Shown here piece after piece: positions 7,039 through 41,153 of a stretch of 64,000 bases of DNA (the first letter of the stretch is position 1; the number at the start of each line of letters is the position of its first letter). This DNA is from Eledone cirrhosa. Lineage: Eukaryota. The translations under genes were made by a program, and so were the position numbers. The stretch is from contig OZ024742.1 in the NCBI GenBank assembly GCA_964016885.1, positions 20,212,001-20,276,000 of the forward strand, written 5' to 3'. Below the pieces are notes generated by a model. It was not told the DNA's origin, searched no databases, and saw only the letters and a program-made list of their open reading frames with translations.

Positions 7039-7046
7039 ATGCAAAT
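7039..7046 (+). promoter_or_regulatory. Octamer ATGCAAAT 100 bp upstream of the HHR core
   Basis: The same motif lies at similar spacing at 8785, 16903(-), 41019 and 40900(-). Confidence 0.5.
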
Positions 7047-7103
7047 TAGTCTGCCCACTACTAATTTTCATAGAAAAAGCATATAACGATATGTGCTTTT
7101 ACG

Positions 7104-7199
7104 ATTCTCTAGAAAGGCCGGAAGATAGGTAAATATTGCTGATGAGATGTAACAACATCGAAACTAGTCCAATATTCCTTGTCTGGCTTTCTGGAGAAT
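7104..7199 (+). ncRNA. Type I hammerhead ribozyme, fully canonical core, extended helix I
   Basis: aatattg-CTGATGA-gatgt aaca acatc-GAAA-ctag-TC-caatatt (7132-7176). Predicted GUC cleavage after 7169. Helix I extends via ttctctagaaaggccgga / tctggctttctggagaa. Confidence 0.92.
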
Positions 7200-7424
7200 A
7201 GAGGAAAGGTGTTTCCTCGAAAACCAGTATGACTCTAAAAACCGGTTTGTCTGTGTGTTTAGATACAGAATAGCTGGACACTCACAGTAAAGTGTCCAGT
7301 GAAAAACTCGGTACATCTACATATGTACACGTGTGTGTATTCATATGCATACTAGTATTTCAGTATACATATGTGGATGTACATTTTTAACTTAATTAAT
7401 ATAAATATACTCCTCTACCTTCTA

Positions 7425-7473
7425 TCACGGGACCCCAGACACGCCTTTGCAGAACCCACTTTGGGGACCACTG
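7425..7473 (-). mobile_element. hAT (Charlie-like) terminal fragment
   Basis: Minus strand starts cagtggtccccaaagtgggttctgc, typical of a Charlie-type TIR; no partner end found. Confidence 0.4.
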
Positions 7474-7934
7474 GCCTGGACAGTGGGGTAGAACGCTCTT
7501 TGACATGCAGAATCCCAGACACAAACCTCCACATGGTTCCAGTAGTCAGAATAGCACCGAAAAGAAGGATTGGACCCTTCTGGCTTCCATCTTTGTAAAA
7601 ATAAACAGAAAATAGCCATCCAGTGATACATCTTGACATTGAAAAACAACAAAAAATCAATTGATTTATTCGGTCATCTGACAAATAAGAGATCGATAAA
7701 GGAATATATATGTCAATCGACCTGTGTCTTTTAATATTTCCCATGTACTTTATCAATAGATAGATTTCTTTTGTCGTATGTGAAGATCAATGTCAACAGA
7801 GCAAGCTGTCCATTGTTTACGACGATAGATTAGTTCAAGATATTTGTCTTATATTTAATCAGAGGCAAATACTGACGTTTTAAACAAATTTATATTTTTC
7901 CGCTGATTTAATAACATTCCAGGACAATACCGCT

Positions 7935-8500
7935 AGACAACGAAACATGCACACATACATAGAAACATACACATACACACATATATACACACACAGAGAA
8001 ACACATACATACACACATACATAGAAACACATATAGACAGACATACGTACACATACACACACAGACAGACGCACACATACACAGTACAGACAGACACACA
8101 CACACAAACAGACACATACATAAACACAGACGCGTAAACACACAGACACACATAGACGGACATACACACATATATACACAGACAGACATACACATACATA
8201 CACTCACACAGACATACACATACACGCACACTCACATGCACGCACACACACGGACACACATTCACGTATACATACACTGACGCCTACATCCACACACCCA
8301 CACATACCCACACAGTCAGAGAACGACGCACACACACACACACTCACACAAACAAACAGATGCACACGCAGCCACACACTCAGACGCACACACACATACA
8401 CAGATGCACGCACACAAACATACACAGATGCACGCACACACACACAGACGCACATATACAGCCACTTAGACAGACTGACACACACACATACAAACATATG
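7935..8500. repeat. Degenerate (CA)n-rich microsatellite
   Basis: Direct reading. Similar tracts at 10670-11415, 50820-51420 (GT) and 52950-53285. Confidence 0.95.
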
Positions 8501-8672
8501 ACAGCTGCAGCTTGATAACTTCTGTCTTCGCCATTTGGTGGCTAGTGCCGTCCATGTTATCGGGACTGCAGGCCGGGACCTGCTATAAGCCTGAAGTCCT
8601 TGTTGTGACTTGACAGATTACTAAATACTCTGGCACATTAATCTTCGACACTGCTTGACTAAATGAGAATAC

Positions 8673-9060
8673 AAACATACCGTATTTCTTTAGAAATACG
8701 ACATTCCATAAATATCTGTATACAGCTATGCTCAAAGCTACATTCTGATTCTATTCTAAGTTGAACCAAATTATACAGCTTCATATGCAAATGAGATTAA
8801 TCACCTCGTTTACACAGACGAGAAATCTATATATTCTCGCCCGTTTTCAAGTCCAGCAGTTGCAAGAGCGGGAGGGATCGTCCCGATGAGAACCAATTCA
8901 GTTCGAAATGCATCGACGATTGACCCCCTTGATTCTGCTGGACACCGACAGTGTTTTTGCCTAGCTACGGCTTTCTAAATGTTTATCTATAAACATACCG
9001 TATTTCTTTAGAAATACGAAATTTCAATACAGCTATGCTCGAAGCTAAATCCTAATTCTC
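8673..9060 (+). mobile_element. Partial tandem (retrozyme-like) unit, 318-bp period
   Basis: aaacataccgtatttctttagaaatacga...tacagctatgctc occurs at 8673 and 8991, enclosing an octamer and an HHR. Confidence 0.7.
8851..8943 (+). ncRNA. Type I hammerhead ribozyme motif, core variant CCGAUGA
   Basis: gatcgtc-CCGATGA-gaac caattca gttc-GAAA-tgca-TC-gacgatt (8876-8921). Outer helix gtccagcag/ctgctggac. Confidence 0.82.
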
Positions 9061-9068
9061 TCCCCACT

Positions 9069-9143
<75 letters not shown>

Positions 9144-9199
9144 ATATCAAAGAGTTGACTGTAACTCATTCCGTAGAGCTTGCCACTTGGTTGTCAAGC

Positions 9200-9395
9200 A
9201 TTCCTTTGTGGGCCTTGGGACCTTGTACATGTTGTTCAAGAACCTGCCGATTATGCTGGAATTCTCATTGAAGCAGTCCCGGTATTTATTTTTTCGAATT
9301 GAATCCGATAATTCAATCAGCAGCATCATAGACGACTTCGGCAAGGATTTGAACTCAGAACGTAAAGGAATGTAACTATATAATTGAAGGACACA
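9200..9395 (-). mobile_element. Degenerate tRNA-derived SINE
   Basis: ggatttgaactcagaacgtaaag is the reverse complement of the SINE B-box region. Confidence 0.6.
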
Positions 9396-9414
9396 CCGAA
9401 ACCTTTTCAACACC

Positions 9415-9850
9415 CTACATCACCACCACAACCACCACCGCCACCAACAACAACTTATAAAACACCCCCAACATCACCATCATACCTGCTGCCAACAACA
9501 ATACCTGGATAGAACACCCCCGCTTTCTCCCTATAAGAACGACCTCTAACATATTCCCATCCAGCAACCCCACCAACATCCTCGCCAACATCCCGACACT
9601 AACAACAACAATGACCCCTCAGAACATTGCTTCCCCACCACTGACAACAAAATCCCCCAACCCACCCTAGAGCATCCCTCCTCCACCACTAACCACAACA
9701 ATAGCCCCATCCCCACCCTAGAGCATCCCTCCTCCACCACTAACCACAACAATAACCCACCCCCACCCTAGAGCACCCTTCCCCCACCACTAACCACAAC
9801 AATATCTCCTCTTCCACCACTAACAATAACAACAACAGCAACAAGATACA
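9415..9850. repeat. CAA/CAC-rich low-complexity tract with a 51-bp triple tandem (9660-9810)
   Basis: cccaccctagagcatccctcctccaccactaaccacaacaata repeated about 3 times. Confidence 0.85.
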
Positions 9851-10094
9851 ATGACCACTGTACAGTGAGTGAATTTAGTGAATGTCACAGTTAACTGTGG
9901 CAAGAAATCCCAAGGTAAAAACATTCAAAAAGAAAAGAGAACAAAAAATGAAAGAAATTGTCTGTAAAACAATAGATTGTCTAAAAATACGACAAAATAA
10001 ATACAAAACTAAAAATAAAATATAGCTAGACAATAAAACAATAAAATAAGAAAATAAGAAAATAATAAGATAGCTTAAAAGTAAAATAGTGAAA

Positions 10095-10440
10095 TAGCAT
10101 TGGAATGTCTGAAGACATGGCCAGAAGCAAATATTTTCTCACTTCAATGTTGATCTAACCAATATTCCAATATTGTCTTTACTGATGACTCTCTTTGTTC
10201 TCCTTTTGTCCTTCCTTCTCTATTTTCTCTGTCATCTATTTTAGAAGAAGAACATTCTTTTAAACTAAAAATGCCCATTGCAGTCTATAAACAGATCAGC
10301 TAATATTAGTACAGCAAACTTTTACATCACTTTCTCAGACTATATTGGTGGTCAGTAGTGTATCTAAGATAAGAACCGTCCTTGGAAGCAGCTTTTAATA
10401 CACATGTTTGGCTCCAATCTTTTATTTTTCTTCTAATGTC
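10095..10440 (-). mobile_element. Possible highly degenerate RTE 3' relic
   Basis: Minus-strand peptides '...REGRTKGEQRE...GHVFRHS' loosely resemble RTE C-termini; many stops. Confidence 0.3.
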
Positions 10441-10588
10441 TGATGCTATTTCTGTCTTCTGAAGATTTACTCTCTCCTCTCACTCTCTCTCACCCTCTAT
10501 ATCACCCGTTCCTTTCTCTTTCCCCGTCTCTTTCTCTCACTCTATCTCTCTCAAACTGTCTCTTGTTGATTTTCCACTGTTGACACAT

Positions 10589-10648
10589 TTTCTTCTTCTT
10601 CTTCTTCTTCTTCTTCTTCTTCTTCTTCTTCTTCTTCTTCTTCTTCTT
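10589..10648. repeat. (TTC)n microsatellite
   Basis: Direct reading. Confidence 0.97.
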
Positions 10649-11267
10649 GGCGTATTTTGTCGTTGGAAGTACACACACAGAAACACGCACAACAACCACT
10701 TCTAACACACACACATAAAGACACACATACACACACACACGCACCCCTCTCTTATACCCTCACACATGCACACACACACACACACACATGCTCATATATC
10801 ACATATACAAATGTACACACACACACAAATACATATATACATATATAAAGAACGGATACATAGACAGACATACAGTTAGAGTTTCAAATACATACAGGAT
10901 AACAGATATACATATACACACGTACACACATACACACATACACACATACATTCATACACATACATACATACACACACACACAAATACATGTAAACATATA
11001 AAACAGATGAATGGATAGACACAAACACATACAAGATTAACAGATACACATATATACACATACATACACACACACATACGCACTCATAAACACATACATA
11101 CGCATACACACACATACACACACATACACAAATACAAATACACATACACACAGTAACATACACATGCATATACACACAAACACACATATATATATATATA
11201 CACACGCGCACACACATATACACACATACACACATATATGCACACATATGCACATATACACACACAT

Positions 11268-11307
<40 letters not shown>

Positions 11308-11837
11308 TCACTTACATAAATAAACACACACGCACACATGCATAGATATGCATGCCATTACATAAATACACACATACACATAAATACACGCACTTACATA
11401 AATACACGCACACACTGGTCTATTATCTAAACAGTTCGAAGTATTTAGATTTAATTAATCTATGATTTTCCGTTTTATATTAATGAATAATTAATTTATT
11501 TTCCCGAAAAATATATATTTCACACTTCAAAATAGTAAAGTTGACAACCATTAACAGCTATGATGTAAAAACTGACTTCAAAGGGCGATGAATATATTTT
11601 TAATCAGCGTTTTAAAGCATCTTAATGCTGAGATATATATTTTAATTAACTCTTGTGAAAATGATAGCTAATTAGTAGTAACAAACAACACGTGAATTAA
11701 AATTACTATGTGTTACATCACATGTCATTTAATACATGTAGGGGCGGTGGAACTGGGGGGGCGGGCACAGGGCTCCATGACCCCTCCCTCTTTCAATGAT
11801 TATATTTTTCTCCCCAAACTACCAAAACACATCTATT

Positions 11838-13052
11838 TGGATATATACATGTTATGTTACATTGATATATACACGTTATGTAACATGGATATGTACATGT
11901 TATATTACATGGATATGTACATGTTATGTCACATGGATATGTACATGTTATGTAACATGGATATGTACATGTTATGTTACATGGATATATACATGTTATG
12001 TTACATGGATATGTACATGTTATGTCACATGGATATGTACATGTTATGTTACATGGATATATACACGTTATGTCACATGGATATATACACGTTATGTCAC
12101 ATGGATATATGCACGTTATGTAACATGGATATATACATGTTATGTTACATGGATATATACACGTTATGTAACATGGATATATGCACGTTATGTAACATGG
12201 ATATATACATGTTATGTTACATGGATATATACACGTTATGTCACATGGATATGTACATGTTATGTAACATGGATACGTACATGTTATGTTACATGGATAT
12301 ATACACGTTATGTCACATGGATATATACATGTTATGTTACATGGATATATACACGTTATGTAACATGGATATATGCACGTTATGTAACATGGATATATAC
12401 ATGTTATGTTACATGGATATATACACGTTATGTCACATGGATATGTACATGTTATGTAACATGGATATGTACATGTTATGTTACATGGATATGTACATGT
12501 TATGTTACATGGATATATACATGTTATGTTACATGGATATATGCACGTTATGTAACATGGATATATACATGTTATGTTACATGGATATATACACGTTATG
12601 TAACATGGATATGTACATGTTATGTTACATGGATATATACATGTTATGTAACATATATATATATATACATGTTATGTAACATGTATATATACATGTCATG
12701 TGACATGTATATGTCCATATTATGTTACATGAATATATATACATGTTATGTAACATGGATATATACATGTTATGTAACATGGATATTTACATGTTATGTT
12801 ACATGGATATATACACGTTATGTAACATGGATATATACATGTTATGTAACATGGATATGTACATGTTATGTTACATGGATATATACATGTTATGTAACAT
12901 ATATATATATATATACATGTTATGTAACATGTATATATACATGTCATGTGACATGTATATGTCCATATTATGTTACATGTATATATATACATGTTATGTA
13001 ACATGGATATATATACATGTCATCTAACATGTATATATCCATGTTAGGTAAC

Positions 13053-13138
<86 letters not shown>

Positions 13139-13200
13139 GTTATGTTATATGTACATATACATGTTATGTAACATGTATATGTATATGTACATGTACATAT
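11838..13200. repeat. 24-bp minisatellite TTATGTAACATGGATATATACATG
   Basis: About 50 units; the 8-aa periodic ORFs are artefacts. Confidence 0.97.
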
Positions 13201-13524
13201 CGAAGTCTTTTTTTATATGCCGGTTGATATTTGATAATAACAGCTAAATTAATCACTACAAATGAATTGATCAAATTTGCACACACCCCCCCTCTCCTCA
13301 TTCAGAAATGTTTTCATTGCCCCATGGCATGGTATGTGTGGTATGGTCACGTAACTTCTGATAAAGTGGTAGGTGTGTCGTAGTGGCGTACGACATTTCG
13401 TGGCCATTTTTAAGTCTGGAGGAAGCTCATCTCTTTTCACCGTCTGAATATAACAGAATTCGTCCAGAGAATGTTAGAAAATAAGAAAGAGAGGAAGTGG
13501 AAGAGAAAGAGATATAGAGGGAGA

Positions 13525-13830
13525 ACTAAACCAGTACTAAACTGGTACTTTTTTTTTATCTACCTTGGATGGATGAAATGCAGAATTGACATTGACAGGA
13601 TTTGAGCTCCAAACGTACTGCATCAGAATAACTAAATAGTTATGATAATATGGTAGCATGATCTTGAGGGAGTCTTAGAGGCGCTGTATTAACATACGGT
13701 GTTTTGGGGAGCATTTTAAAATCTGGCAGAGCCCATCTCCTCCCATTTTTCTTTTGAGAGCAGAGAGCTGAAACGAATACCTCAAAGCATTCTATCTGAC
13801 GTTCTATCGACCCAGTTAATTTACTGCCTC
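13525..13830 (-). mobile_element. Degenerate SINE fragments
   Basis: actggtacttttttttatc...ggatgaaatgcagaattgac...ggatttgagctc and a head remnant at 13770-13829. Confidence 0.55.
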
Positions 13831-13837
13831 ATTATAG

Positions 13838-14022
13838 GGCGGTGGATTGGCAGTATCGGTAGAGGGTCGAACGCCATGCTTTGACGCATAGAGTTACGGC
13901 CCTTTCCATTCTGAGTTCAAATCCCGCCGAGGTCAATTTTGCCTTTCATCCTTACGGGGTCGATAAAATAAAGTACCAGTAATACACTGGGTAATTGCTG
14001 GCCTTGTGCCAAAAGTAGGAAC

Positions 14023-14027
<5 letters not shown>
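13838..14027 (+). mobile_element. Full-length ~190-bp tRNA-derived SINE
   Basis: A-box-like tggcagtatcggt, B-box gagttcaaatcc, 3' end acaatta joined to (TA)n; more than 10 relatives in the window. Confidence 0.9.
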
Positions 14028-14078
<51 letters not shown>

Positions 14079-14322
14079 GCCCGAAACGTCATTCCCCACC
14101 GCACTCTCAAGCGTGAATCCAATACCTAACACCTTTCGTAACTGTACTCCTTGTTGTTATTTACTTTTCCAATATATATATTTCGCTAAAAAGAAATGTT
14201 GGTTTGGTTTGGAGGATTATTTTGGACTAATTGCCTCGGTAGTCCCTTGGAGACCGGAGATATTCATGTCGTTAGTGTTCCCCATTAATAGGTGATTGCT
14301 GGTGACTTCAGGGGGAAAAAAG

Positions 14323-14575
14323 GCACATGTGGTTAGAATGTCTCAGGAAAGAATCGCTGGACAGATTTTACAGGCAAAACCAACCGGCAGGAGACCCAGG
14401 GGTAGACCCCGAGCAAGATGGTTGGATAACATCCATGAGCTTGGTTGGTCTCGCTTGGGGATGCAGCCAGATTAAACGGTTGCTTCTGACAGGACCCGCT
14501 GGAAGGGGTGTGTGAAGACTCGGCCCCTACGTCCCTCTCATGAATAAGTGGGCAAAGAAGAAGTAATAGTAGTAA

Positions 14576-14618
<43 letters not shown>
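14323..14618 (+). mobile_element. RTE-clade LINE 3' end with (GAA)/(GTA)n tail
   Basis: Translation from 14323: AHVVRMSQERIAGQILQAKPTGRRPRGRPRARWLDNI, a typical RTE C-terminus. Confidence 0.85.
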
Positions 14619-14760
14619 CACGGATAAAATCAGTTTAACCGAGATTGTTATATGTACAGATATAAATTTAATCTATCTATCTATCAATCTATCTCAACTC
14701 TCCTCTCTCTCTCACTCTCTACATATATGTACACACACAGAGACACACTCAGACACGCAG

Positions 14761-14802
<42 letters not shown>

Positions 14803-14806
<4 letters not shown>

Positions 14807-14962
14807 TTAACCGATATAAAAGACACAGAAGCGAAAACCAACCAAACAGTGAGTGTGTTCTGTTATTAATTCTGGCAATATTATTACACAAATATGACCC
14901 TCCCCAAGTATAACAATATTTGTTTCGACACACGATTTCATATAAAAAACCTCGCAAAACTA

Positions 14963-14963
<1 letters not shown>
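14803..14963 (+). mobile_element. Family A solo arm in (TA)n
   Basis: Near-identical to 757-913; inverted twin at 17218-17374. Confidence 0.85.
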
Positions 14964-15053
<90 letters not shown>

Positions 15054-15165
15054 TAAAAGGAATTCCAACTTTGTCTGATTTACTCGTTTTAATTACAATT
15101 CTTTAAAATGTATAATGGTATTATAATGAAATAGTATGGTAGAATATTAAATGTTAAGTGTTAAT

Positions 15166-15204
15166 TGAACAAGTACTTTCATGCTTTCGCAATCTTCAGG
15201 TTGA
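15166..15204 (-). ncRNA. Minimal hammerhead motif (mirror copy)
   Basis: Reverse complement reads tcaac-CTGAAGA-t tgc gaaa gca t-GAAA-gtac-TT-gttca. Confidence 0.6.
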
Positions 15205-15277
15205 AATTGTGTGGTGACAGTAAAGTTTGCAATTTTCAACAGTTGAAAATTGCAAACTTGACTGTCACCACATATTA

Positions 15278-15316
15278 TGAACCTGAAGATTGCGAAAGCA
15301 TGAAAGTACTTGTTCA
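15278..15316 (+). ncRNA. Minimal hammerhead motif
   Basis: tgaac-CTGAAGA-t tgc gaaa gca t-GAAA-gtac-TT-gttca; helix III is the palindrome AGTACT. Confidence 0.7.
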
Positions 15317-15428
15317 ATTAACACTTAACATTTAATATTCTACCATACTATTTCATTATAATACCATTATACATTTTAAAGAATTGTAATTAAAACGAGT
15401 AAATCAGACAAAGTTGGAATTCCTTTTA

Positions 15429-15494
<66 letters not shown>

Positions 15495-15606
15495 TTGAAA
15501 TAAAATGAAAACGAAATTTCATTTCTCACTCTTAGTTCGGCACTTACTTAAATGTAAGTATGTATGTATACGTACATACATATATGTATACAGACGTATA
15601 GTAGCA

Positions 15607-15669
<63 letters not shown>

Positions 15670-16169
15670 TGGCTGCCAACTCGTTTTCGAGTACGGCCAC
15701 TACTTTATATCCATGTAGGAGAACCCCTATCGAAGCGCTGAACGAGTGTGACTTTTTAGTCCAGCCAGCGACTTGAAAACTCTGGTACAAAGACTACACT
15801 TGTGACAATTATTGACACATAGTGCTGGGCCCATGGTACCATGTGAGGACAAGTGCAGAGAGATCTCCAGATATAAAGCAATGCCTGTGCCGTGAAGCTT
15901 TTATAGTGAGCAAAGGCACTGCACAAAGCCAGTCCCACTCTCTTAACCAAGATGATATTTACCAAAAAGAAGAACAAGTCAACATCATTGGATACCATCA
16001 GGGTTGCAGGTGTAGGCATCTCTAACAAAATACACCCCGTCCCCCCACCCCCACCCCATCCACACCACCCCGTTCTATGTAAAGTTATGTTGGTGCCGCG
16101 CCATCCAGGCCGAAACAAATGAGATCGTGTAGGTGTCATGACAAAAAACACACAGTCCACGCTGTAATG

Positions 16170-16366
16170 TGGCCGTGTAGGCAACACGGTAAAAACCTCC
16201 CAGACCCACACTGTAAATGTGGTTGGTGTTAGGAAGGGCATCCAACTGTAGAAAACCTGCCAGACAGTCCTATGCGAGCAAGACAATCACTCTTGCCTCA
16301 AGTGGGACTACGCCCGTCCAAACCCATGCAAGCGTGGAACACGGACGTTAAACGTTGATGATGATG
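16170..16366 (+). mobile_element. SINE/RTE-related 3' tail ending in (GAT)n
   Basis: gttggtgttaggaagggcatccaactgtagaaaac...ggacgttaaacgttgatgatgatg. Confidence 0.65.
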
Positions 16367-16389
16367 TGTGTGTATATATATATATATAT

Positions 16390-16603: not shown

Positions 16604-16610
<7 letters not shown>
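16390..16610 (+). mobile_element. RTE-type 5' UTR fragment between (TA)n tracts
   Basis: Ends in ctaggagaaggaaaactctga, a motif I recognise from RTE 5' regions. Confidence 0.45.
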
Positions 16611-16635
<25 letters not shown>

Positions 16636-16766
16636 CAGGTACACATACATACATGCACGTATCAGTTTAGCGGACGCTTATTATAACGCCGCTTTGTTCG
16701 TTTGTAAACAAACTGAACAGCCTGAATTTATGCCGTACGGTGTTAAGGCAACCACGTCACCTTTTT

Positions 16767-16853
16767 GTTCAACACTGACACAGGAACGATGTACTAGTTT
16801 AAAGCTTGTTAGCTATCATCAGCACCGTATACCCTTCTGCCAGATAGTTGAAC
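16767..16853 (-). ncRNA. Hammerhead motif with G12>U (probably inactive)
   Basis: Reverse complement of 16786-16828: acggtg-CTGATGA-t agct aaca agct t-TAAA-ctag-TA-catcgt. Outer helix gttcaac/gttgaac. Confidence 0.72.
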
Positions 16854-17067
16854 GTTCGAAAGTATATACTTTCCTTATGAAAATTAACGGCTGAGCAGCC
16901 TAATTTGCATATCGAGTGAGTTAAGTCGGTCAGGCATACCGAAAACGATAAGTTGAAATAAAATGAAAACGAAATTTCATTTCTCACTCTTAGTACGGCA
17001 CTTACTTAAATGTAAGTATGTATGTATACGTACATACATATATGTATACAGACGTATAGTAGCATGC

Positions 17068-17103
<36 letters not shown>

Positions 17104-17217
17104 ATACAGGTACACATACATACATGCACGTATCAGTTTAGCGGACGCTTATTATAACGCCGCTTTGTTCGTTTGTAAACAAACTGAACAGCCTGAATTT
17201 ATATATATATATATATA

Positions 17218-17374: not shown

Positions 17375-17386
17375 TATAATATATAT

Positions 17387-29300: not shown

Positions 29301-32300
29301 GGTGATAGAATGGCTAAGTGGTAGAATGGTTAGGTGATAGAATGGTTAGGCGGTAGAATGGTTAGGTGGAATAATGGCTAGGTGGTAGAATGGTTAGGTG
29401 GTAGAATGGCTAGGTGGTCGAATGGCTAGGTGGTAGAATGGTCAAATGGCAGAATGGCTAAGTGGTAGAATGGTTAGGTGGTAGAATGGTTAGGTGGTAT
29501 AATGGTTAGGTGGTAGAATGGCTAGGTGCTAGAATTGTTTCGTCGTAGAATGGCTAGGTGGTAGAATGGTTAGGTGGTAGGATGGCTTGGTGGTAGAATA
29601 GCTAGGTGCTAGAATTGTTACGTCGTAGAATGGCTAAGTGGTAGAATGGATAGCTGGTAGAATGGCTATGTGGTAGAATGGTTAGGTGGTAGAATGGCTA
29701 GATGGTAGAATGGCTAGGTGGTAGAATGTTTAGGTGGTAGAACGTAGGTGATAGAATGGCTATGTGGTAGAATGGTTAGGTGATAGAATGGTTAGGCTGT
29801 AGCATGGCTAGGTGGTAGAATGGTTAGGTGGTAGATTGGTTAGATGGAATAATGGCTATGTGGTAGAATGGCTAGGTGGTAGAATGGCTATGTGGTAGAA
29901 TTTTTAGGGTGTAGAATGGCTAGGTGGTAGAATGTTTAGGTGGTAGAATGGTTAAGAGGTAGAATGGCTAGGTGATAGAATGGCTAGGTGGTAGAATGGC
30001 TAGGTGATAGAATGGTTAAGTGGTAGAATGGTTAGGTCGTAGAATGGCTAGGTGGTAGAATAGCAAGATGTTAGAATTGCTAAATGGTAGCATGGCTAAG
30101 TGGTAGAATGGTGGTAAAATTGCTAGGTGATAGAATGGCTAAGTGGTAGAATGGTTAGGTGGTAGAATGGTTAGGTCGTAGAATAGCTAGGTAGTAGAAT
30201 GGCTAAGTGAAAGTATGGTTAGGCGGGAGAATGGTTAGGCGGTAGAATGGTTACGTGGAAGAATGGCTAAGTGGTAGAATGGCAAGATGTTAGAATAACT
30301 ATATGGTAGATTGGCTTAGCGGTAGAATGGTGGTAAAATGGCTAGGTCATAGAATGGCTAAGTGGTAGAATGGTTAGGTGATAGAATGGTTAGGCGGTAG
30401 AATGGCTAGGTGGTAGAATGGTTAGGTGGTAGAATGGTTAGGTGGAATAATGGCTAGGTGTTAGAATGGTTAGGTGGTAGAATGGCTAGGTGGTCGAATG
30501 GCTAGGTGGTAGAATGGTCAAATGGCAGAATGGCTAAGTGGTAGAATGGCTAGATGGTAGAATGGTTAGGTGGTATAATGGTTAGGTGGTAGAATGGCTA
30601 GGTGCTAGAATTGTTACGTCGTAGAATGGCTAGGTGGTAGAATGGTTAGGTGGTAGGATGGCTAGGTGGTAGAATAGCTAGGTGCTAGAATTGTTACGTC
30701 GTAGAATGGCTAGGTGGTAGAATGGCTAGGTGGTAGAATGGCTAGGTGGTAGAATGGTTAGGTGGTAGAATGGCAAGGTGGTAGGATGGTTAAGAGGTAG
30801 CATGGCTAGGTGACAGAATGCTTAAGGGGTAGAATGGTTAGTTGATAGAATGGTTAGGTGGTAGAATGACTAGGTGATAGAATGGCTAAATGTTAGAATG
30901 GTTAGGTAATAGAATGGTTAAGCGGTAGAATGGCTAGGTGGTAGAATGTTTAGGTGATAGAATGGCTAGATTGTAGAATGGTTAGGTGGAAGAATGGCTA
31001 AGTGGTAGAATGGCAAGGTGTTAGAATAACTATATGGTAGAATGGCTAGGTGGTAGAATGGTTAAATGGCAGAATGGCTAGGTGGTAGAATGGCTATGTG
31101 GTAGAATGGTTAGTTGGTAGAATGGTTAGGTGGTAGAATAGCGAGGTGGTAGGATGGTTAAGAGGTAGAATAGATAGGTGATAGAATGGTTAAGTGGTAG
31201 AATGGTTAGTTGATAGAATGGTTAGGTGGTAGAATGACTAGGTGATAGAATGGTTAAGTGGTAGAATGGTTAGGTCGTAGAATGGCTAGGTGGTAGAATG
31301 GCAAGATGTTAGAATGGCTAAATGGTAGAATGGCTAAGTGGTAGAATGGTGGTAAAATTGCTAGGTGATAGAATGGCTAAGTGGTAGAATGTTTAGGTTG
31401 TAGAATGGTTACGTCGTAGAATAGCTAGGTAGTAGAATGGCTAAGTGGTAGAATGGTTAGGCGGTAGAATGGTTAGGCGGTAGAATCGTTACGTGGAAGA
31501 ATGGCTAAGTGTTAGAATGGCAAGATGTTAGAATAACTATACGGTAGATTGGCTAAGCGGTAGAATGGTGGTAAAATGGCTAGGTGATAGAATGGCTAAG
31601 TGGTAGAATGGTTAGGTGATAGAATGGTTAGGCGGTAGAATGGTTAGGTGGAATAATGGCTAGGTGGTAGAATGGTTAGGTGGTAGAATGGCTAGGTGGT
31701 CGAATGGCTAGGTGGTAGAATGGTCAAATGGCAGAATGGCTAAGTGGTAGAATGGTTAGGTGGTAGAATGGTTAGGTGGTATAATGGTTAGGTGGTAGAA
31801 TGGCTAGGTGTTAGAATTGTTACGTTGTAGAATGGCTAGGTGGTAGAATGGTTAGGTGGTAGGATGGCTTGATGGTAGAATAGCTAGGTGCTAGAATTGT
31901 TACGTCGTAGAATGGCTAGGTGGTAGAATGGATAGCTGGTAGAATGGCTATGTGGTAGAATGGTTAGGTGGTAGAATGGCAAGGTGGTAGGATGGTTAAG
32001 AGGTAGCATGGCTAGGTGATAGAATGGTTAAGGGGTAGAATGGTTAGTTGATAGAATGGTTAGGTGGTAGAATGACTAGGTGATTGAATGGCTAAGTGTT
32101 AGAATGGTTAGGTGATAGAATGGTTAAGCGGTAGAATGGCTAGGTTGTAGAATGTTTAGGTGATAGAATGGCTAGTTTGTAGAATGGTTAGTTGGAAGAA
32201 TGGCTAAGTGGTAGAATGGCAAGATGTTAGAATAACTATATGGTAGAATGGCTAGGTGGTAGAAAGGTTAAATGGCAGAATGGCTAGGTGGTAGTATGGC

Positions 32301-35300
32301 TAGGTGGTAGAATGGTTATGTGGTAGAATGGTTAGGTGGTAGAATAGCGAGGTGCTAGAATTGTTACGTCGTAGAATGGCTAGGTGGTAGAAAGGTTAGG
32401 TGGTAGAATGGCAAGGTGGTAGAATGGTTAAGAGGTAGAATAGATAGGTGATAGAATGGTTAAGTGGTAGAATGGTTAGTTTATAGAATGGTTAGGTGGT
32501 AGCATGACTAGGTGATAGAAGGGTTAAGTGGTAGAATGGTTAGGTGATAGAATGTTTAGGCTGTAGAATGTCTAGGTGGTAGAATGGCTAGGTGATAGAA
32601 TGGCAAGATGTTTGAATGGCTAAATGGTAGAATGGCTGAGTGGTAGAGTGATGGTAGAATGGTTAGGTGGTAGAATGGCTAGGTTGTAGAATGGTTAGGT
32701 GGTAGAATGGCTAGGTCTTAGAATGGCTATGTGGTAGAATGATTAAGTGGTAGAATGGCTAGGTGGTAGAATGGCTAGATGGTAGAATGGCTAGGTGGTA
32801 GAATCGTTAGGTCGTAGAATAGTTATATGGTAGAATGGCTAGGTGCTAGAATGGTTAGGTGGTAGAATGACTAGGTGGTAGAATCGTTAGGTGGTAGAAT
32901 GGCAAGGTGGTAGGATGGTTAAGAGGTAGAATGGCTAGGTGATAGAATGGTTAAGTGGTAGAATGGTTAGTTGATAGAATGGTTAGATGTTAGAATGACT
33001 AGGTGATAGAATGGCTAAGTGGTAGAATGGTTAGGTGATAGAATGGTTAAGCGGTAGAATGGCTAGGTGGTAGAATGTTTAGATGATAGAATGGCTATGT
33101 GGTTAAATGGCTACGTGGTAGAATGGTTAGGTGGTAGAATGGTTAGGTTGAAGAATGGCTAGGTGATAGAATGGTTATGTGGTAGAATGACTAGATGGTA
33201 GAATGGTTAAGAGCTAGAATGGTTAGGCGGTAGAATGGCTAGGTGGTAGAATGGCTATGTGGTAGAATGGTTAGGTGGTAGAATGGTTAGGTGGAAGAAT
33301 GGCTAGGTAATAGAATGGTTAGGTGGTAGAATGGCTAGATGGTAGAATGGTTAAGAGGTAGAAAGTCAAGGTGATATAATGGCTAGGTGGTAGAATGGCT
33401 AAGTGTTAGAATGGTTAGGTGGCAGAATGGTTAAGCAGTAGAATATCTAGGTGGTAGAATGGTTAGGTGGTAGAATGGCTAGGTGGTAGAATGGTTAGGT
33501 GGAAGAACGGCTAGGTGGTAGAATGGTTAGGTGGTAGAATGACTAGATGGTAGAATGGTTAAGAGGTAGAATGGCAAGGTGATATAATGACTAGGTGATA
33601 GAATGGTTAAGTGGTAGAATGGTTAGGCGGTAGAATGGCTAGGTGTAAGAATGGTAAGTGGTAGAATTGTTAGGTGGTAGAATGACTAGGTGATAGAATG
33701 GCTAAGTGTTAGAATGGTTAGGTGATAGAATGGTTAAGCGGTAGAATATCTAGGTTGTAGAATGGTTAGGTGGTAGAATGGCTAAATAGTAGACTTGCTA
33801 AGTGGTAGAATGATGGTAGATTGGTTAGGTAGTAGAATGGCTAGGTGGTAGAATGCTTAAGTGGTAGAATGGATAGGTGGTAGAATGGCTAGGTGGGAGA
33901 ATGATTAAGTGCTAGAATGGCAAGGTGATAGGATTGTTAGGCGGCAGAATGGTTAGGTGGAATAATGGCTAGGTGGTAGAATGGTTAGTTGGTAGAATGG
34001 CTAGATGGAATAATGGCTAGGTGATAGAATGGTTAGGCTGTAGCATGGCTAGGTGGTAGAATGGTTAGGTGGTAGATTGGTTAGATGGAATAATGGCTAT
34101 GTGGTAGAATGTTTGGGGGGTAGAATGGCTAGGTGGTAGAATGTTTAGGTGGTAGAATGGTTAAGAGATAGAATGGCTAGGTGATAGAATGGCTAGGTGG
34201 TAGAATGGCTAGGTGATAGAATGGTTAAGTGGTAGAATGGTTAGGTCGTAGAATGGCTAGGTGGTAGAATGGCAAGATGTTAGCCATTCTACCATTTAGC
34301 CATTCTAAGTGGTAGAATGGTGGTAAAATTGCTAGGTGATAGAATGGCTAAGTGGTAGAATGGTTAGGTGGTAGAATGGTTAGGTCGTAGAATAGCTAGG
34401 TAGTAGAATGGCTAAGTGATAGAATGGTTAGGCGGTAGAATGGTTAGGCGGTAGAATGGTTACGTGGAAGAATGGCTAACTGGTAGAATGGCAAGATGTT
34501 AGAATAACTATATGGTAGATTGGCTAAGCCGTAGAATGGTGGTAAAATGGCTAGATGATAGAATGGCTAAGTGGTAGAATGGTTAGGTGATAGAATGGTT
34601 AGGCGGTAGAATGGCTAGGTGGTAGAATAGTTAGGTGGTAGAATGGTTAGGTGGAATAATGGCTAGGTGGTAGAATGGTTAGGTTGTAGAATGGCTAGGT
34701 GGTAGAATGGTTAGGTTGTAGAATGGCTAGGTGGTCGAATGGTAAGGTGGTAGAATGATCAAATGGCAGAATGGCTAAGTGGTAGAATGGCTAGGTGGTA
34801 GAATGGTTAGGTGGTATAATGGTTAGGTGGTAGAATGGCTAGTTGCTAGAATTGTTACGTCGTAGAATGGCTAGGTGGTAGAATGGTTAGGTGGTAGGAT
34901 GGCTAGGTGGTAGAATAGCTAGGTGCTAGAATTGTTACGTCGTAGAATGGCTAGGTGGTAGAATGGCTAGGTGGTAGAATGGTTAGGTGGTAGAATGGCA
35001 AGGTGGTAGGATGGTTAGTTGATAGAATGGTTGGGTGGTAGGATGACTAGGTGATAGAATGGCTAAGTGTTAGAATGGTTAGGTGATAGAATGGTTAAGC
35101 AGTAGAATGGCTAGGTGGTAGAATATTTAGGTGATAGAATGGCTAGTTTGTAGAATGGTTAAATGGAAGAATGGCTAAGTGGTAGAATGGCAAGATGGTA
35201 GAATAACTATATGGTAGAATGGCTAGGTGGTAGAATGGTTAAATGGCAGAATGGCTAGGTGGTAGAATGGCTATGTGGTAGAATGGTTAGGTGGTAGAAT

Positions 35301-38300
35301 GGTTAGGTTGTAGAATAGCGAGGTGGTAGGATGGTTAAGAGGTAGAATAGATAGGTGATAGAATGGTTAAGTGGTAGAATGGTTAGTTGATAGAATGGTT
35401 AGGTGGTAGAATGGTTAGGTGATAGAATGGTTAGGCTGTAGAATGGCTAGGTGGTAGAATGGCTAGGTGATAGAATGGCAAGATGTTTGAATGGCTAAAT
35501 GGTAGAATGGCTGAGTGGTAGAATGATGGTAGAATGGCTAGGTTGTAGAATGGTTAGGTGGTAGAATGGCTAGGTGCTGGAATTGTTAGGTGGTAGAATG
35601 GCTAGGTCTTAGAATGGCTATGTGGTAGAATGATTAGGTGGTAGAATGGCTAGGTGGTAGAATGGCTAGGTGGTAGAATGGCTAGGTGGTAGAATGGTTA
35701 CGTCGTAGAATAGTTATATGGTAGAATGGCTAGGTCCTAGAATGGTTAGGTGGTAGAATGACTAGGTGGTAGAATCGTTAGGTGGTAGAATGGCAAGGTG
35801 GTAGGATGGTTAAGAGGTAGAATGGCTAGGTGATAGAATGGTTAAGTGGTAGAATGGTTAGTTGATAGAATGGTTAGGTGTTTGAATGACCAGGTGATAG
35901 AATGGCTAAGTGGTAGAATGGTTAGGTGATAGAATGGTTAAGCGGTAGAATGGCTAGGTGGTAGAATGTTTAGATGATAGAATGGCTATGTGGTTAAATG
36001 GCTACGTGGTAGAATGGTTAGGTGGTAGAATGGTTAGATCGGAGAATGGCTAGGTAATAGAATGGTTAGGTGGTAGAATGGCTAGATGGTAGAATGGTTA
36101 AGAGGTAGAATGTCAAGGTGATATAATGGCTAGGTGGTAGAATGGCTAAGTGTTAGAATGGTTAGGTGGTAGAATGGTTAAGTGGTAGAATATCTAGGTG
36201 GTAGAATGGTTAGGTGGTAGAATGGCTAGGTGGTAGAATGGTTAGGTGGAAGAACGCCTAGGTGGTAGAATGGTTAGGTGGTAGAATGACTAGATGGTAG
36301 AATGGTTAAGAGCTAGAATGGCAAGGTGATATAATGACTAGGTGATAGAATGGTTAAGTGGTAGAATGGTTAGGCGGTAGAATGGCTTGGTGGTAGAATG
36401 GCTAAGTGGTAGAATTGTCAGGTGGTAGAATGACTAGGTGATAGAATGGCTAAGTGTTAGAATGGTTAGGTAATAGAATGGTTAAGCGGTAGAATATCCA
36501 GGTGGTAGAATGGTTAGGTGGTAGAATGGCTAGTTGGTAGGATGATTAGGTGGAAGAACGGCTAGGTGGTAGAATGGTTAAGATGTAGAATGGCTAGGTG
36601 ATAGAATGGCTAGGTGATAGAATGGTTAGGTGGTAGAATGGTTAGGTGGAAGAATGGCAAGCTGTTAGAATAACTATAGGATAGAATGGCTAAGTGGTAG
36701 AATGGTGGTAGAATGGCTAGTTGATAGAATAGTTAGGCGGTAGAATGGCTAGGTGGTAGAATGGCTAGGTGATAGAATGGTTAAGTGGTAGAATGGTTAG
36801 GTCGTAGAATGGCTAGTTGGTAGAATGGCTAAGTGGTAGAATGGTTAGGTGGTAGAATGGTTAGGTAGAAGAATGGCTAAGTGGTATTATGGCAAGATGT
36901 TAGAATAACTATATGGTAGAATGGCTAAATGGTAGAATGATGGTAGAATGGCTAGGTGATAGAATGGTTAGGTGGTAGAATGGCTAGGTGGTAGAATGGC
37001 TAGGTGGTAGAATGGTTAAATGGCAGAATGGCTAATGGTAAAATGGTTAGGTGGTAGAATGGTTAGGTGATAGAATTGTTACATCGTAGAATGGCTAGGT
37101 GGTAAAATGTTTAGGTGGTAGAATGGCAAGGTGGTAGGATGGTTAGCTGGTAGAATGGTTAGTTGGAATAATGGCTAGGTGGTAGAATGGTAAGTGGTAG
37201 AATGGCTAGATGGTAGAATGGCTAGGTGGTAGAATGTTTAGGTGGTAGAATGGATGGGTGGTAGAATGTTTAGGTGGTCGAATGGCTAGGTGGTAGAATG
37301 GTTAAGAGGTAGAATGGCTAGGTGATAGAATGGTTAGGCGGTTGAATGGCTAGGTGGTAGAATGGCTAGATTATAAATGGTTAAGTGGTAGAATGGTTAG
37401 GTCGTAGAATGGCTAGCTGGTAGAATGGCTAAATGGTAGAATGGCAAGATGTTAGAATGGTAAATGGTAGAATTGCTAAATGGTAGAATGATGGTAGAAT
37501 GGTTAAGTGGTAGAATGGCTAGGTGGTAGAATGCTTAAGTGGTAGAATGGCTAGGTGGTAGAATGGCTAGGTGGTAGAATGATTAGGTGGTAGAATGGCA
37601 AGTTAGATAGGATGGTTAGGCGCCAGAATTGTTAGGTGGAATAATGGCTAGGTGGTAGAATGGTTAGTTGGTAGAATGGCTAGATGGTAGAATGGCTAGG
37701 TGGTAGAATGTGTGTTTAGGTGGTAGAATGACTAGATGATAGAATGGCTAAGTGGTAGAATGGTTAGGTGATGGAATGGTTAGGCGGTAGAATGGCTAGG
37801 TGGTACATTGGTTAGGTGGTAGAATGGTTAGGTGGAATAATGGCTAGATGGTAGAATGGTTAGGTGGTAGAATGGCTTGGTGGTAGAATGGCTAGGTGGT
37901 AGAATGGCTAGGTGGTAGAATGTTTAGTTGGTAGAATGGCTACGCGGTAGAATGTGTAGGTGGTAGAATGGTTAAGAGGTAGAATGGCTAGGTGATAGAA
38001 TGGTTAGGCGGTAGAATGGATAGGTGGTAGAATGGCTAGGTGATAGAATGGTTAAGTCGTAGAATGGTTAGGTGGTAGAATGGCTAGGTGGTAGAATGGC
38101 TAAGTGGTAAAATGGCAAGATGTTAGAATGGCTAAATGGTAGAATGGCTAAGTGGTAGAATGATGGTAGAATGGTTAGGTGGTAGAATGTCTAGGTGGTA
38201 GAATGCTTAAGTGGTAGAATGGCTAGGTGGTAGAATGCTTAAGTGGTAGAATGGATAGGTGGTAGAATGGCTAGGTGGTAGAATGGTTAAGAGGTAGAAT

Positions 38301-38623
38301 GGTTAGGTCGTAGAATGGCTAGGTGGTAGAATGGCTAGTTGGTAGAATGGTTAAGTGGTAGAATGGTTAGGTCTTAGAATAGGTAGTAGAATGGCTAAGT
38401 GGTAGAATGGTTAGGCGGAAGAATTACTAAGTGTTAGAATGGCAATATGTTAGAATAACTATATGGTAGAATGGCTAAGTGGTAGAATGGTGGTAGAATG
38501 GCTAGGTGATAGAATGGTTATGTGGTAGAATGGCTAGGTGGTAGAATGGCAAGGTGTTAGAATAACTATGTGGTAGAATGGCTAGGTGGTAGAATGGTTT
38601 GGTGTGGTGGTAGAATGGCTAAG
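17387..38623. repeat. ~21-kb satellite array, 16-bp unit GGTGGTAGAATGGYTA (about 1,300 units) with higher-order duplications
   Basis: Continuous periodic sequence; diagnostic variants recur at 980-bp and 6502/6694-bp offsets. Confidence 0.99.
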
Positions 38624-38772
38624 CGGACGGACAACATCGTTTGTTATATTTGTTTCGGCTCTTTACGTTCTGTGTTTAAATCACTCCAAGATCAACATTT
38701 CGGTTCAGCGTTCAGGGATCGATAAAATCTACTTTCTGTTCTCCAAATTGCTTACATTGTGCCTAAATTATT
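38608..38772 (+). mobile_element. Degenerate SINE fused to the satellite end
   Basis: tggtagaatggctaagcggacggacaacatcg...ctttacgttctgtgtttaaatc...gggatcgataaaa...ttgtgcctaaa aligns with the other SINE copies. Confidence 0.75.
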
Positions 38773-38798
38773 GATTTGTGTTGACCTAGGATTCCAAA

Positions 38799-38913
38799 GG
38801 GCGACAAATTGGCAGAGTCGTTAGAACGTCCGATAGAATGGTTTGCCGTATTCGTTCCACCTCTCAGCTCTCTGAGTTCAAATCCCGCTGAGGTCAACTT
38901 TGCCTTTCCTCCC
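38799..38913 (+). mobile_element. SINE 5' half
   Basis: tggcagagtcgttag...ctgagttcaaatcccgctgaggtcaactttgcctttc. Confidence 0.8.
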
Positions 38914-39517
38914 TGAACACGTTCACATACATAGATACATACATAATACATACACACATACATATATAATACATACTTACAGACATACATACATATATAG
39001 TTAGGAAATTACTAGTACAATCCATTAATGGATCAGTAAAAATATGTAAAACATTTCAAAGGTTCTGCATCTAATAACTGCATATACACATGTACAGACA
39101 CAAAGCATATACACATGCATACATATAACTCAAAACATGCACATCCACACATACAATAACATCCATACCTACACATCCATGCATACATACATACATATCT
39201 ACCTAGTTGATGTGTGTAAAATCCAATGAGAGTGTCTTGTAACTATGTTAGAAACCGACTCCCTCTCTATCGGTAAACATTTGTGAAATTATATAACCAG
39301 AAAACATACATACATACATATGTACATACATATATACATACACACACACACATACATACTAGCAACTATTGCTCTATAAAAAAGAGGACTAAATACAATT
39401 GGGAGGTGATTCTGTTGAGTATATGTGGCTTTAGTTGTGATATTTTATGATTTAGTTTCATGAAAAGACACGATGCCCAACACTTTAGTTGGTGAGGTTG
39501 TTGTGTCAAACATTTAG

Positions 39518-40082
39518 ACTGTATCTCTGCAAGTTGATCTTTGCACGTTGATCCCTACAATGAGTATATGTCTCAATATATTTATGTAGAGTTTATATTT
39601 TCTATTAAGAACATTAGAGGTAAAATTCCCTATCATAACTGACTAGTTTCATCTCATTTCAGTGTCTGCAAGTTGATTTCTTCAAGTCGATCTCTAGAGT
39701 TAATCTCTGCAAGTTGATCTCTGCAAGTTAATCTCTGTAAGTTGATCTCTGAAAGTTGATCTCTGCAAGTTAATCTTTGCAAGTTGATCTCCGAAAGTTG
39801 ATCTCTGCAAGTTGTTCTCTGTAAGTTAATCTCTGCAAGGAAGCTATGTCTCAACATATATTTGGAGAGTTTATATTTTGTATTGAGATCATTAGGTACA
39901 ATTCCCTCCCTATAGTAACTCACTAGTTTCATCTAAGTTGTATATCTGTAAGTTTATCTCGGTAAATTAATCTCTGCAAAGAAGGTATGTTTCAATATAT
40001 ATATAGATGTAGAGTTTATATATTCTATATTGGGAGAATTAGATGTTCAATCCCCTACAGTAACTGACAAGATTCATTTCAG
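39518..40082. repeat. Compound tandem: 14-bp ATCTCTGCAAGTTG runs alternating with a ~90-bp block (3 copies)
   Basis: The block tatgtctcaa...gagtttatatt...taactgactagtttcatct occurs at ~39567, ~39845 and ~39986. Confidence 0.85.
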
Positions 40083-40217
40083 TTGAAAATCATCAGATTG
40101 CTATAATGGTTGTTTATTGAAGTAAAGTTAGTCAGATATCGTTGGGAATTGTAGCTTCTTATTCCCTCAATAATGTGGTTGTTTGAGAGGGGGGGGGGGG
40201 CAGACAGACAGAGCGAG

Positions 40218-40270
<53 letters not shown>

Positions 40271-40565
40271 GGGTATGTAGGAAGGTGAGTGTTTGTGTAT
40301 GTGAGTGTTTGTGTGTGAGTATTTGTGTATGTGAGTGTTTGTGTGTGTAAGTGTGAATGTGTGTGTGTGTGAATATTTGTATGTATGTGTATGTGAGTGT
40401 GTATGTGTGTATGTATGTTTTCACTAATATCCACCAGTATATGTTTCATATTCAACAACACGTCATCTTAGATCAAATCACATGACACTGAAGTGCAATT
40501 CCGAAAAATATAAATATTTTGCTTTGAATGGAAACGTGTGATTGTTATACACACGCCCCCCGCCC

Positions 40566-40637
<72 letters not shown>

Positions 40638-40764
40638 AATCTGAGTTTTTCGAATATTAATAATAACATTTGATTCGTTTGCAATTATGCAAACAAACCT
40701 CAATTTTATAGCCATGTCAGTAGAATGAACACTTCATTCTCGCACTGGTGTTGGCATGCGAACA

Positions 40765-40814
40765 GAACTGCAGGCAGTAATGTTTTTGGGTATCACCCTT
40801 CATCAGTACAGCTC
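40765..40814 (-). ncRNA. Inactivated mirror hammerhead (GAAA>AAAA, GUC>GCC)
   Basis: Reverse complement: gagctgta-CTGATGA-agggtgataccca-AAAA-cattactg-CC-tgcagttc. Confidence 0.6.
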
Positions 40815-41103
40815 ACTAGTGAAAATATTTGCTATTTTCAAAAATACACAGTGACTGATCGGGCTGATATGCATGTCAGCAGACTGGCTGATCAGCCAGA
40901 TTTGCATATCAGCAGACTGACCAGTCAGTTTCCTGTATATGAGCGATAAATGGCTGGCTTTGCCAAATTCAGTGGATCTGCTAATATGCAGATCTGACTG
41001 ATCAGCCAGTCTGACGAAATGCAAATAAGGCCGATCAGACACTGCGTATTTTTGAAAATAGCATATATTTTCACTAGCTCTGACAGTTTGGCAGATGAAC
41101 AGT

Positions 41104-41153
41104 GAGCTGTACTGATGAAGGGTGATACCCAGAAACATTAGTGTCTGCAATTC
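41104..41153 (+). ncRNA. Type I hammerhead motif, intact core
   Basis: gagctgta-CTGATGA-a gggt gat accc a-GAAA-cattagtg-TC-tgcaattc; predicted cleavage after 41145. Confidence 0.8.

Follow-up and report, generated by a model that had tools for sequence, protein, structure and literature searches.

The promoter of the schistosome hammerhead repeats Sm-alpha and Sj-alpha consists of tRNA-type internal boxes, and that of newt satellite 2 reportedly combines an octamer with a proximal sequence element (PSE). Satellite 2 has been described as a hammerhead repeat with an internal promoter of the small nuclear RNA (snRNA) type, used by RNA polymerase II (Pol II) (Coats, Zhang and Epstein 1994, as cited in PMC2220036), and the schistosome repeats as units of RNA polymerase III (Pol III) resembling short interspersed elements (SINEs), in which the upstream unit transcribes the next (PMC6765202). 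The same account has the promoter of one Penelope-like pseudo-long terminal repeat (pLTR) serve the next unit and hammerheads with a palindromic stem III cleave as dimers. Metazoan retrozymes without long terminal repeats (non-LTR retrozymes), from mussel, coral and axolotl, are described as short, low-GC tandem units of 170-400 nt, and hammerhead repeats are already known from a mollusc, the mussel, at about 5000 copies (PMC7229834, Cervera and de la Pena 2020). Animal retrozyme transcription, abundant in most tissues, is an open question; a 2020 review presents plant and animal retrozymes as seemingly promoterless (PMC7761336), and a promoter in the LTR of a plant retrozyme has since been reported. 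The transcription of snRNA-derived SINEs is also treated as open, as snRNA promoters lie outside the RNA (PMC4494074). Here we describe hammerhead repeats in a 64,000-nt stretch of the cephalopod Eledone cirrhosa (GenBank assembly GCA_964016885.1, contig OZ024742.1, positions 20,212,001 to 20,276,000, forward strand), referred to as the window, where four repeat families, A to D, have an octamer-bearing box upstream of the ribozyme; a fifth, E, lies elsewhere in the genome. The molluscan nature of this genome is borne out by 39 above-cut-off matches to the mollusc haemocyanin domain PF14830; one functional unit scores 659 and 650 bits against 4yd9_C and 1js8, from squid and octopus, and 460 bits against 8tnv, from a gastropod, which points to a cephalopod. 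What appears to be new is a set of hammerhead retrozymes bearing a putative promoter built on the U6-class box of the host, in two layouts (A-D and E). A literature search, with most subscription journals and supplements outside its scope, found no report of a promoter in mollusc hammerhead repeats, and in a term search of the main text of a 2026 octopus repeat annotation (PMC13282606) ribozyme, hammerhead and promoter were unmentioned.

The octamer ATGCAAAT occurs exactly five times in the window, at 7039 (+), 8785 (+), 16910 (-), 40907 (-) and 41019 (+), and is followed at 100, 98, 88, 101 and 93 nt, respectively, by a co-oriented hammerhead core, C(T/C)GATGA. A recount in the window bore out these coordinates, distances and orientations, which come from a first-pass annotation of the stretch; that annotation had counted at least three families, and four were found (A at 7039, B at 8785, D at 16910, C at 40907 and 41019). 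The C copies with cores at 40806 and 41112 face each other as inverted members of a single family, so that the five octamers amount to four families, not five independent cases. The features of these families are listed below. Unit ends are approximate, and box scores refer to a Pol III promoter matrix built from seven hand-chosen, top-scoring host genes (three U6, U6atac, MRP and two tRNA-Sec).

6943..7409, plus strand: family A unit, standing alone here, of a hammerhead repeat with a 466-bp tandem period
7038..7049, plus strand: family A proximal box with the octamer, U6-class, 23 bits
7061..7073, plus strand: imperfect inverted copy of the family A box (the ATTTTCATAG motif of the first-pass annotation), pairing with the box in the predicted RNA fold
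7080..7087, plus strand: family A TATA-like element, +41 to +43 from the octamer, predicted start near 7111
7108..7195, plus strand: family A type I hammerhead, core 7139-7145, GAAA 7160-7163, short palindromic stem III
after 7169, plus strand: predicted family A cleavage, following GUC
8670..9060, plus strand: family B unit, about 1.2 monomers with a terminal direct repeat, period about 318
8784..8795, plus strand: family B proximal box, 16 bits; TATA 8828-8835, predicted start 8858
8851..8943, plus strand: family B type I hammerhead, CCGA core at 8883, predicted cut after AUC 8914
16625..17205, minus strand: family D unit with internal (TA)n and a terminal repeat
16900..16911, minus strand: family D proximal box, 20 bits; TCAG at +16, TATA 16868-16861, predicted start 16838
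16765..16856, minus strand: family D type I hammerhead, core 16822-16816, TAAA in place of GAAA
40965..41330, plus strand: family C unit, plus copy, with 33-bp upstream sub-repeats
41018..41029, plus strand: family C proximal box, weak here at 6 bits; TCAG 41035, TATA-like element 41062-41069, predicted start 41093
41085..41170, plus strand: family C type I hammerhead, core 41112-41118, GAAA 41132-41135, predicted cut after GUC 41145
40630..40910, minus strand: family C inverted partner; exact octamer 40907-40900 in a sub-repeat, variant in-register box starting at 40874

Three of the five window copies have damaged cores (TAAA for GAAA at 16822, AAAA for GAAA at 40806, and CCGA at 8883). In the inverted C partner about 25 nt around the predicted start are missing, the exact octamer is part of a 33-bp sub-repeat and the variant box in register lies 68 nt from the core; its 101-nt distance is accidental, because it combines a sub-repeat octamer with a deletion. 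Each 33-bp sub-repeat, at 40870-41060 of the window and in further C loci (L280-L304), joins an octamer-like box to a ATCAGTGG-like (ATCAG) box that resembles a box of the host U2 promoter, so that the sub-repeats look like a multimerised promoter element.

As a count, five octamers are ordinary (9 of 100 shuffles reach five). The genome was sampled as 139 stretches of 10 kb at round positions on long contigs (1.39 Mb of about 3.0 Gb), with octamers counted where 300-nt margins were present. In this sample a core in the same orientation lay 78-103 nt downstream of 24 of 108 octamers, compared with 1 of 108 for the reversed octamer, and the corresponding figures for five permuted 8-mers were 0/43, 1/82, 0/66, 0/79 and 1/86. 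The link between octamer and hammerhead is therefore real and well above chance, and the association noticed in the window extends to the wider genome. When the 1.39 Mb were scanned with the host matrix, 18 of the top 20 matches listed preceded an exact core; the other two are a truncated family A copy and a damaged family D copy. A hammerhead descriptor, which gave one false match in 400 kb of shuffled sequence, yielded 86 matches in the sample. Among these the box accompanies 18 of 21 copies of A and D, three of four of C and one of three of B; it is absent from the other hammerheads (0/52 copies of seven clusters and 0/6 singletons). The box-less hammerheads of the window, at 624, 3433, 15199, 15283, 44552 and 47034, all score below 0 bits on the box matrix. 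The hammerhead-like motifs at 15199 and 15283 lie in a 251-bp inverted repeat (14990-15492). Another repeat (L190:5466 and L197:9085, plus strand) has an octamer box of 13-14 bits and no hammerhead core at 60-115 nt.

Relatedness among the families bears on whether chance or hitch-hiking, with one recent family sampled repeatedly, could produce this pattern. An inverted pair accounts for two of the five window copies, A is homologous to D (78% over 59 nt) and C to D (65% over 361 nt), and D supplies 23 of the 41 family matches in the sample; rough scaling of these 41 gives a copy number in the tens of thousands. Against this, family B is at best weakly related, B and E have no significant alignment to the other families beyond the box, and even C and D are only about 65% identical. 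Stems I and II have different sequences in all five families and keep their pairing, and host genes, which are independent of the repeats, show a motif of matching sequence and register. In an alignment of the four window families the main invariant blocks are the box, two letters at +17/+18, the TATA element and the catalytic core. Judging by these alignments, the shared ancestry of A, C and D is real but old, and it leaves the invariance of box, TATA and core unexplained. The caveat that all copies might descend from one recent family thus holds as far as A, C and D are related and fails on their age and on family B; hitch-hiking is largely refuted and very improbable.

The hammerhead assignment rests on motifs and stems, because Rfam gives sub-threshold matches or none: at the gathering threshold there is no hammerhead in the window, the best match of family A (HH9, 38.9 bits) lies below its gathering score of 52, and a search of 14 B, C, D and E loci returned no hammerhead match at E<=0.05. 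The core motifs are complete in 6/6 A, 16/28 B, 17/20 C, 9/10 D and 6/16 E distinct contexts, and stem III is short and palindromic in A, B, D and E. Family A occurs in tandem at 466 bp in 57 of 59 spacings, its copies being 97-100% identical and often embedded in (TA)n, and inverted arrays occur. Tandem periods of family D outside the window copy are 463-605 bp. The B and C copies examined are mostly solo or part-tandem and older, with about 87% (B) and 94% (C) identity. Compared with the retrozyme range as given in PMC7229834, A and D are longer, and B has a period of about 318 bp. No open reading frame (ORF) of at least 150 amino acids was found over the window units of A-D. Contigs of four sequencing runs of unspecified kind all show a 466-nt go-back joint, which is equally expected from tandem DNA. 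Two runs labelled as other organisms each contain a single ring-shaped contig at low depth, which may stem from DNA, RNA or carry-over.

Monomer A, the one whole unit whose RNA fold was computed, is strongly self-paired (z = -11). The first-pass annotation had placed a ATTTTCATAG-like motif between octamer and core; such a motif is present, but it is two different things: in A and D it repeats the box imperfectly in inverted orientation and pairs with it, and in C it is the flank of the TATA element. As a PSE it was rejected, the A and D copy instead forming a hairpin with the box. In B and C the paired letter changes along with the box. Because the box pairs and covaries with its partner, the promoter region appears to belong to a structured RNA, as read-through or circular RNA requires. 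The same pairing and covariation would fit a box that is a relic of ancestral capture or is kept for a role at the RNA level (a hairpin, or a protein site in the circle), with RNA arising from host read-through alone. Read-through transcription has been proposed for retrozymes (PMC7761336), and seven hammerhead clusters have spread without the box. However, all families share an unchanged octamer, whereas the sequence it pairs with is imperfect and differs between them, and the TATA element and the spacing are also fixed, in the register of host promoters; an RNA hairpin would need no such constancy. We therefore regard this explanation as quite improbable.

In host genes, the box TATG(C/G)(A/T)AAT(T/G)AG lies at -76 to -79 in all seven chosen Pol III promoters, with TATA at -30/-31, and the octamer box is found in 0 of 16 promoters of U1, U2, U5 and RNase P (fifteen U1/U2/U5 loci plus RNase P RNA). 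The latter promoters have TCAGT near -57, and most also have AATTA near -90 and a TATA element. Sitting at -76 to -79 in U6-class (Pol III type 3) genes and absent from U1/U2/U5 promoters, the octamer in Eledone cirrhosa marks the proximal box of the former class. The first-pass annotation had taken it for the site of a distal element; the distal motif of this host lies near -260, has a different sequence, is common to U1, U2, U6 and RNase P, and is present in 17 of the 23 host genes examined for it. No conserved octamer is present within 300 nt upstream of U1 and U2 (19 distinct upstream regions, 40 loci), and the octamer was accordingly rejected as a distal enhancer. The octamer or a one-letter variant stands at -76 to -78 in four of seven distinct U6 upstream regions; one of the others has an octamer displaced by an insertion, and two are lower-scoring copies that lack it there. 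At U6atac it occurs in the top match (1/8 loci), and the remaining loci look like retrocopies.

Several further observations concern these host genes. Across the host promoter loci (L031-L073, L106, L234-L236, L243-L249) TATA-like elements accompany both the Pol II and the Pol III class, the proximal boxes are class-specific, and a 3' box-like motif follows U1, U2 and U5 at 10-30 nt. The RNase P RNA gene (L114) has a TCAGT box of the U1/U2 type and two distal motifs without a U6-class box, suggesting that RNase P RNA is transcribed by Pol II in this mollusc; MRP RNA has the Pol III layout. One U6 array copy (L077) has an insertion between TATA and gene, and a U6atac-like copy (L110) is fused directly to an inverted family C element. 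Polymerase choice is reported to rest on the TATA element in vertebrates, on PSE sequence in flies and on PSE-TATA spacing in plants (PMC9652321). Paralogous SNAPc complexes behind the two promoter classes were rejected, an exon-wise search having found one locus each for SNAPC3 and SNAPC1; the genome has four POU-domain loci.

The proximal box scores 10-23 bits in most A-D copies, compared with 12-28 bits in host genes when each is left out of the matrix in turn. Two layout features go beyond the first-pass annotation, the TATA element and a difference in spacing. Box-to-TATA distance is 41-44 in A-D and 46-48 in all seven host Pol III genes, a shortening of about 5 bp or half a helical turn, and it stays at 41-44 across A-D while box-to-core distance varies from 80 to 100. 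A TCAGT-type box is present in family C (ATCAGT at TATA-27 in 16/18 contexts, p 0.001 each) and in family D (CTCAG(C/T) at TATA-26 in 7/8 contexts, p 0.005-0.05) and in none of the seven host Pol III genes; host Pol II promoters have theirs 23-28 nt before TATA. Predicted starts in A-D fall on A after a pyrimidine, as in U1/U2, whereas G is the first base of all seven host Pol III genes. Directly after the ribozyme, the longest T-run in A-D is T3 or less in nearly all copies. The A-D promoter is thus likely a hybrid, with a Pol III-class box, a shorter spacing and, in C and weakly in D, a TCAGT box at the Pol II distance. It is quite probable that the units hold a working internal promoter of some kind, whichever polymerase uses it. 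That they are non-LTR retrozyme-like repeats whose internal hybrid promoter, a U6-class box with a TATA-like element, is likely read through by Pol II is the reading we prefer, with slightly more for it than against it. The proposal of an internal snRNA-class promoter joined to the ribozyme survives, being enriched genome-wide and kept across diverged families, with its octamer recast from distal element to U6-class proximal box.

The distribution of T-runs bears on the choice of polymerase. Pol III could instead read the internal promoter in the manner of U6, with most transcripts ending at the first T4 or T5, 100-310 nt on, and rare leaky read-through or parallel Pol II transcription giving monomers. 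The box in 7/7 chosen Pol III but 0/16 other promoters favors this, as does the exact Pol III layout of family E (see below). Few runs of T4 or longer follow the predicted start, T6 or longer runs occur in 2/59 A and 0/11 D monomers while host U6 terminators are T7-T10, and A inserts and many C inserts stop just beyond the first T-run. Schistosome hammerhead repeats also appear to be transcribed by Pol III (PMC6765202), and human type 3 promoters can, by one report, recruit both polymerases (PMC6023835). Set against these points are the box-to-TATA spacing outside the range of all seven host genes, the TCAGT box in C and D and the predicted starts on A. Several T-runs would also have to be passed before the next ribozyme (two T5 and two T4 in the A monomer, about four T4 in the D monomer), and human Pol III is reported to terminate 75% of the time at T4 and 95% at T5 (PMC5725217). 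There is no T-run asymmetry over whole units, because A runs in monomers are no longer than T runs, and the asymmetry past the predicted start is suggestive only; the ends of inserts equally fit TA microhomology with the target. U6-type transcription of A-D by Pol III is, on this evidence, doubtful.

Several results weigh against Pol II read-through or limit what can be built on it. The proximal box is itself Pol III-specific in this host, and the medians for runs of T4 or longer in the 200 nt past the predicted start are 0, 1, 0 and 0 in A-D, compared with 3, 0, 2 and 1 for runs of A4 or longer; a median of 0 for such T-runs is also found in two of seven box-less clusters. The distal -260 motif has no significant match in A-D units (best commonest p 0.07-0.4), and A and B match TCAGT only weakly (p 0.08 in A, p 0.2 in 12/21 of B). 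The promoter matrices were built on only 7 and 14 chosen genes, A, C and D share ancestry and are not independent cases, and a search for an autonomous element carrying the box drew a blank among the 154 ORFs listed, 14 of which, with two window ORFs, were scanned against Pfam. A 3' box was recovered in family C alone (20/28 copies, p 0.01 uncorrected, with a loosely aligned matrix).

Under Pol II read-through, a life cycle can be proposed for the elements directly visible in the DNA: box, TATA, fixed spacing, hammerhead motifs and stems, tandem or part-tandem units, and frequent insertion into (TA)n. RNA would start at YAG about 30 nt past TATA, inside the long stem I and 72-74 bases after the octamer, and Pol II would continue into the ribozyme of the next unit. 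Two successive ribozymes would then excise a monomer that holds the next promoter, probably cleaving as dimers because the short stem III is palindromic in A, B, D and E. A host ligase would close the monomer into a circle, and a Penelope-like reverse transcriptase (RT) would copy the circle into tandem inserts. Because of this tandem or circular route, a gene-external promoter could travel in the transposed RNA. The genome does contain a Penelope-type RT with a GIY-YIG ORF (L184). A hammerhead cluster flanking an RT-like ORF (L126) lacks the box.

Family E, an older repeat outside the window, was found by scanning with the host promoter matrix (L181) and recurs at at least 40 further places at 78-83% identity. 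Of these, 24 loci (L316-L339) were examined and 16 copies were recovered by the anchor; an example is G000:C2:365008880-365009100, minus strand. Box-to-TATA distance is 46-49 in all 16 copies (47 in 13), TATA+30 is G in the commonest contexts, and about 105 nt separate box and core. Directly behind the ribozyme follows a T-run of T4-T10 in 16/16 copies, reaching T6 or longer in eight. The predicted 80-nt product folds as a single hammerhead-shaped hairpin (z -2.0 and -2.9), and family E would thus yield an RNA of about 80 nt consisting of the ribozyme only. No alignment of E with A-D was found outside the box. By its sequence layout E is a U6-type unit, and A-D are a shifted hybrid. We suggest, speculatively and as a rather doubtful scenario, that a selfish ribozyme lineage took over a host U6 promoter and later changed from one polymerase to the other. 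Family E would be the Pol III form, and A-D would have gained Pol II read-through, and with it full-length circles, by losing a half-turn and acquiring a U1/U2 box; the free hammerhead of about 80 nt from E might serve in trans as the dimer partner required by these palindromic ribozymes. If true, the repeats would be a natural mutational series for the choice between Pol II and Pol III at cephalopod snRNA promoters.

Other repeats are present in the window. A satellite array with more than 1000 in-register copies of a 16-bp tandem unit extends from about 17250 to 39000, its right end being approximate. A broken element resembling a long interspersed element lies at 41540-43850, with a weak RVT_1 match at 42641-43330 and interrupted frames. 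Positions 45806-46155 form a perfect 173-bp inverted repeat with divergent tRNA-like copies at 45906-45977 (-) and 45984-46055 (+), 47.1 bits each, which is likely a fold-back head of a tRNA-derived SINE. Units of about 180 bp or more (57308, 58412, 59136 and 60165) are interspersed over 57308-60400, with an inverted match at 44792; each is followed by CTGATGA without hammerhead stems.

For animal retrozymes, a precise promoter, start and mutation targets are now predicted. The contrast between A-D and E opens the choice of polymerase at snRNA promoters to testing in a mollusc, and the U6-class and U1/U2-class promoter motifs obtained as a by-product are useful for guide-RNA expression in cephalopods. 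If the promoter works as proposed, a second phylum would share, in another form, the solution of newt satellite 2, a gene-external snRNA promoter housed in a unit that is tandem or circular.

Compared with known systems, A-D resemble non-LTR retrozymes as these have been described, sharing the type I hammerhead, short, low-GC, non-coding units in tandem or part-tandem arrangement, a strongly self-paired monomer (in A) and Penelope-like elements alongside. They differ in the 460-600 bp units of A and D and in the putative host-matched promoter inside the unit. Penelope-like pLTRs with minimal hammerheads share tandem and inverted arrangements and a palindromic stem III; unlike them, A-D have no ORF, and the hammerhead cluster beside the RT-like ORF in L126 is without the box. 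Sm-alpha and Sj-alpha, as described, likewise place a promoter and then a hammerhead in tandem units, whereas A-E have a putative promoter of the gene-external type 3 or snRNA class. With the promoters of host U6, U6atac, MRP and tRNA-Sec genes the repeats share the 12-bp octamer box, TATA and a start about 30 nt past TATA. A-D depart from them in spacing (41-44 versus 46-48), in having no distal motif and in lacking a T6 or longer terminator behind the ribozyme, whereas family E matches them in spacing and T-run. Newt satellite 2, as described, is alike in being a hammerhead repeat with an internal snRNA-type promoter and a short palindromic stem III. It belongs to another phylum, and in Eledone cirrhosa the octamer is the proximal box of the host Pol III class, joined to a TATA element and accompanied by a sister family, E, in the Pol III layout.

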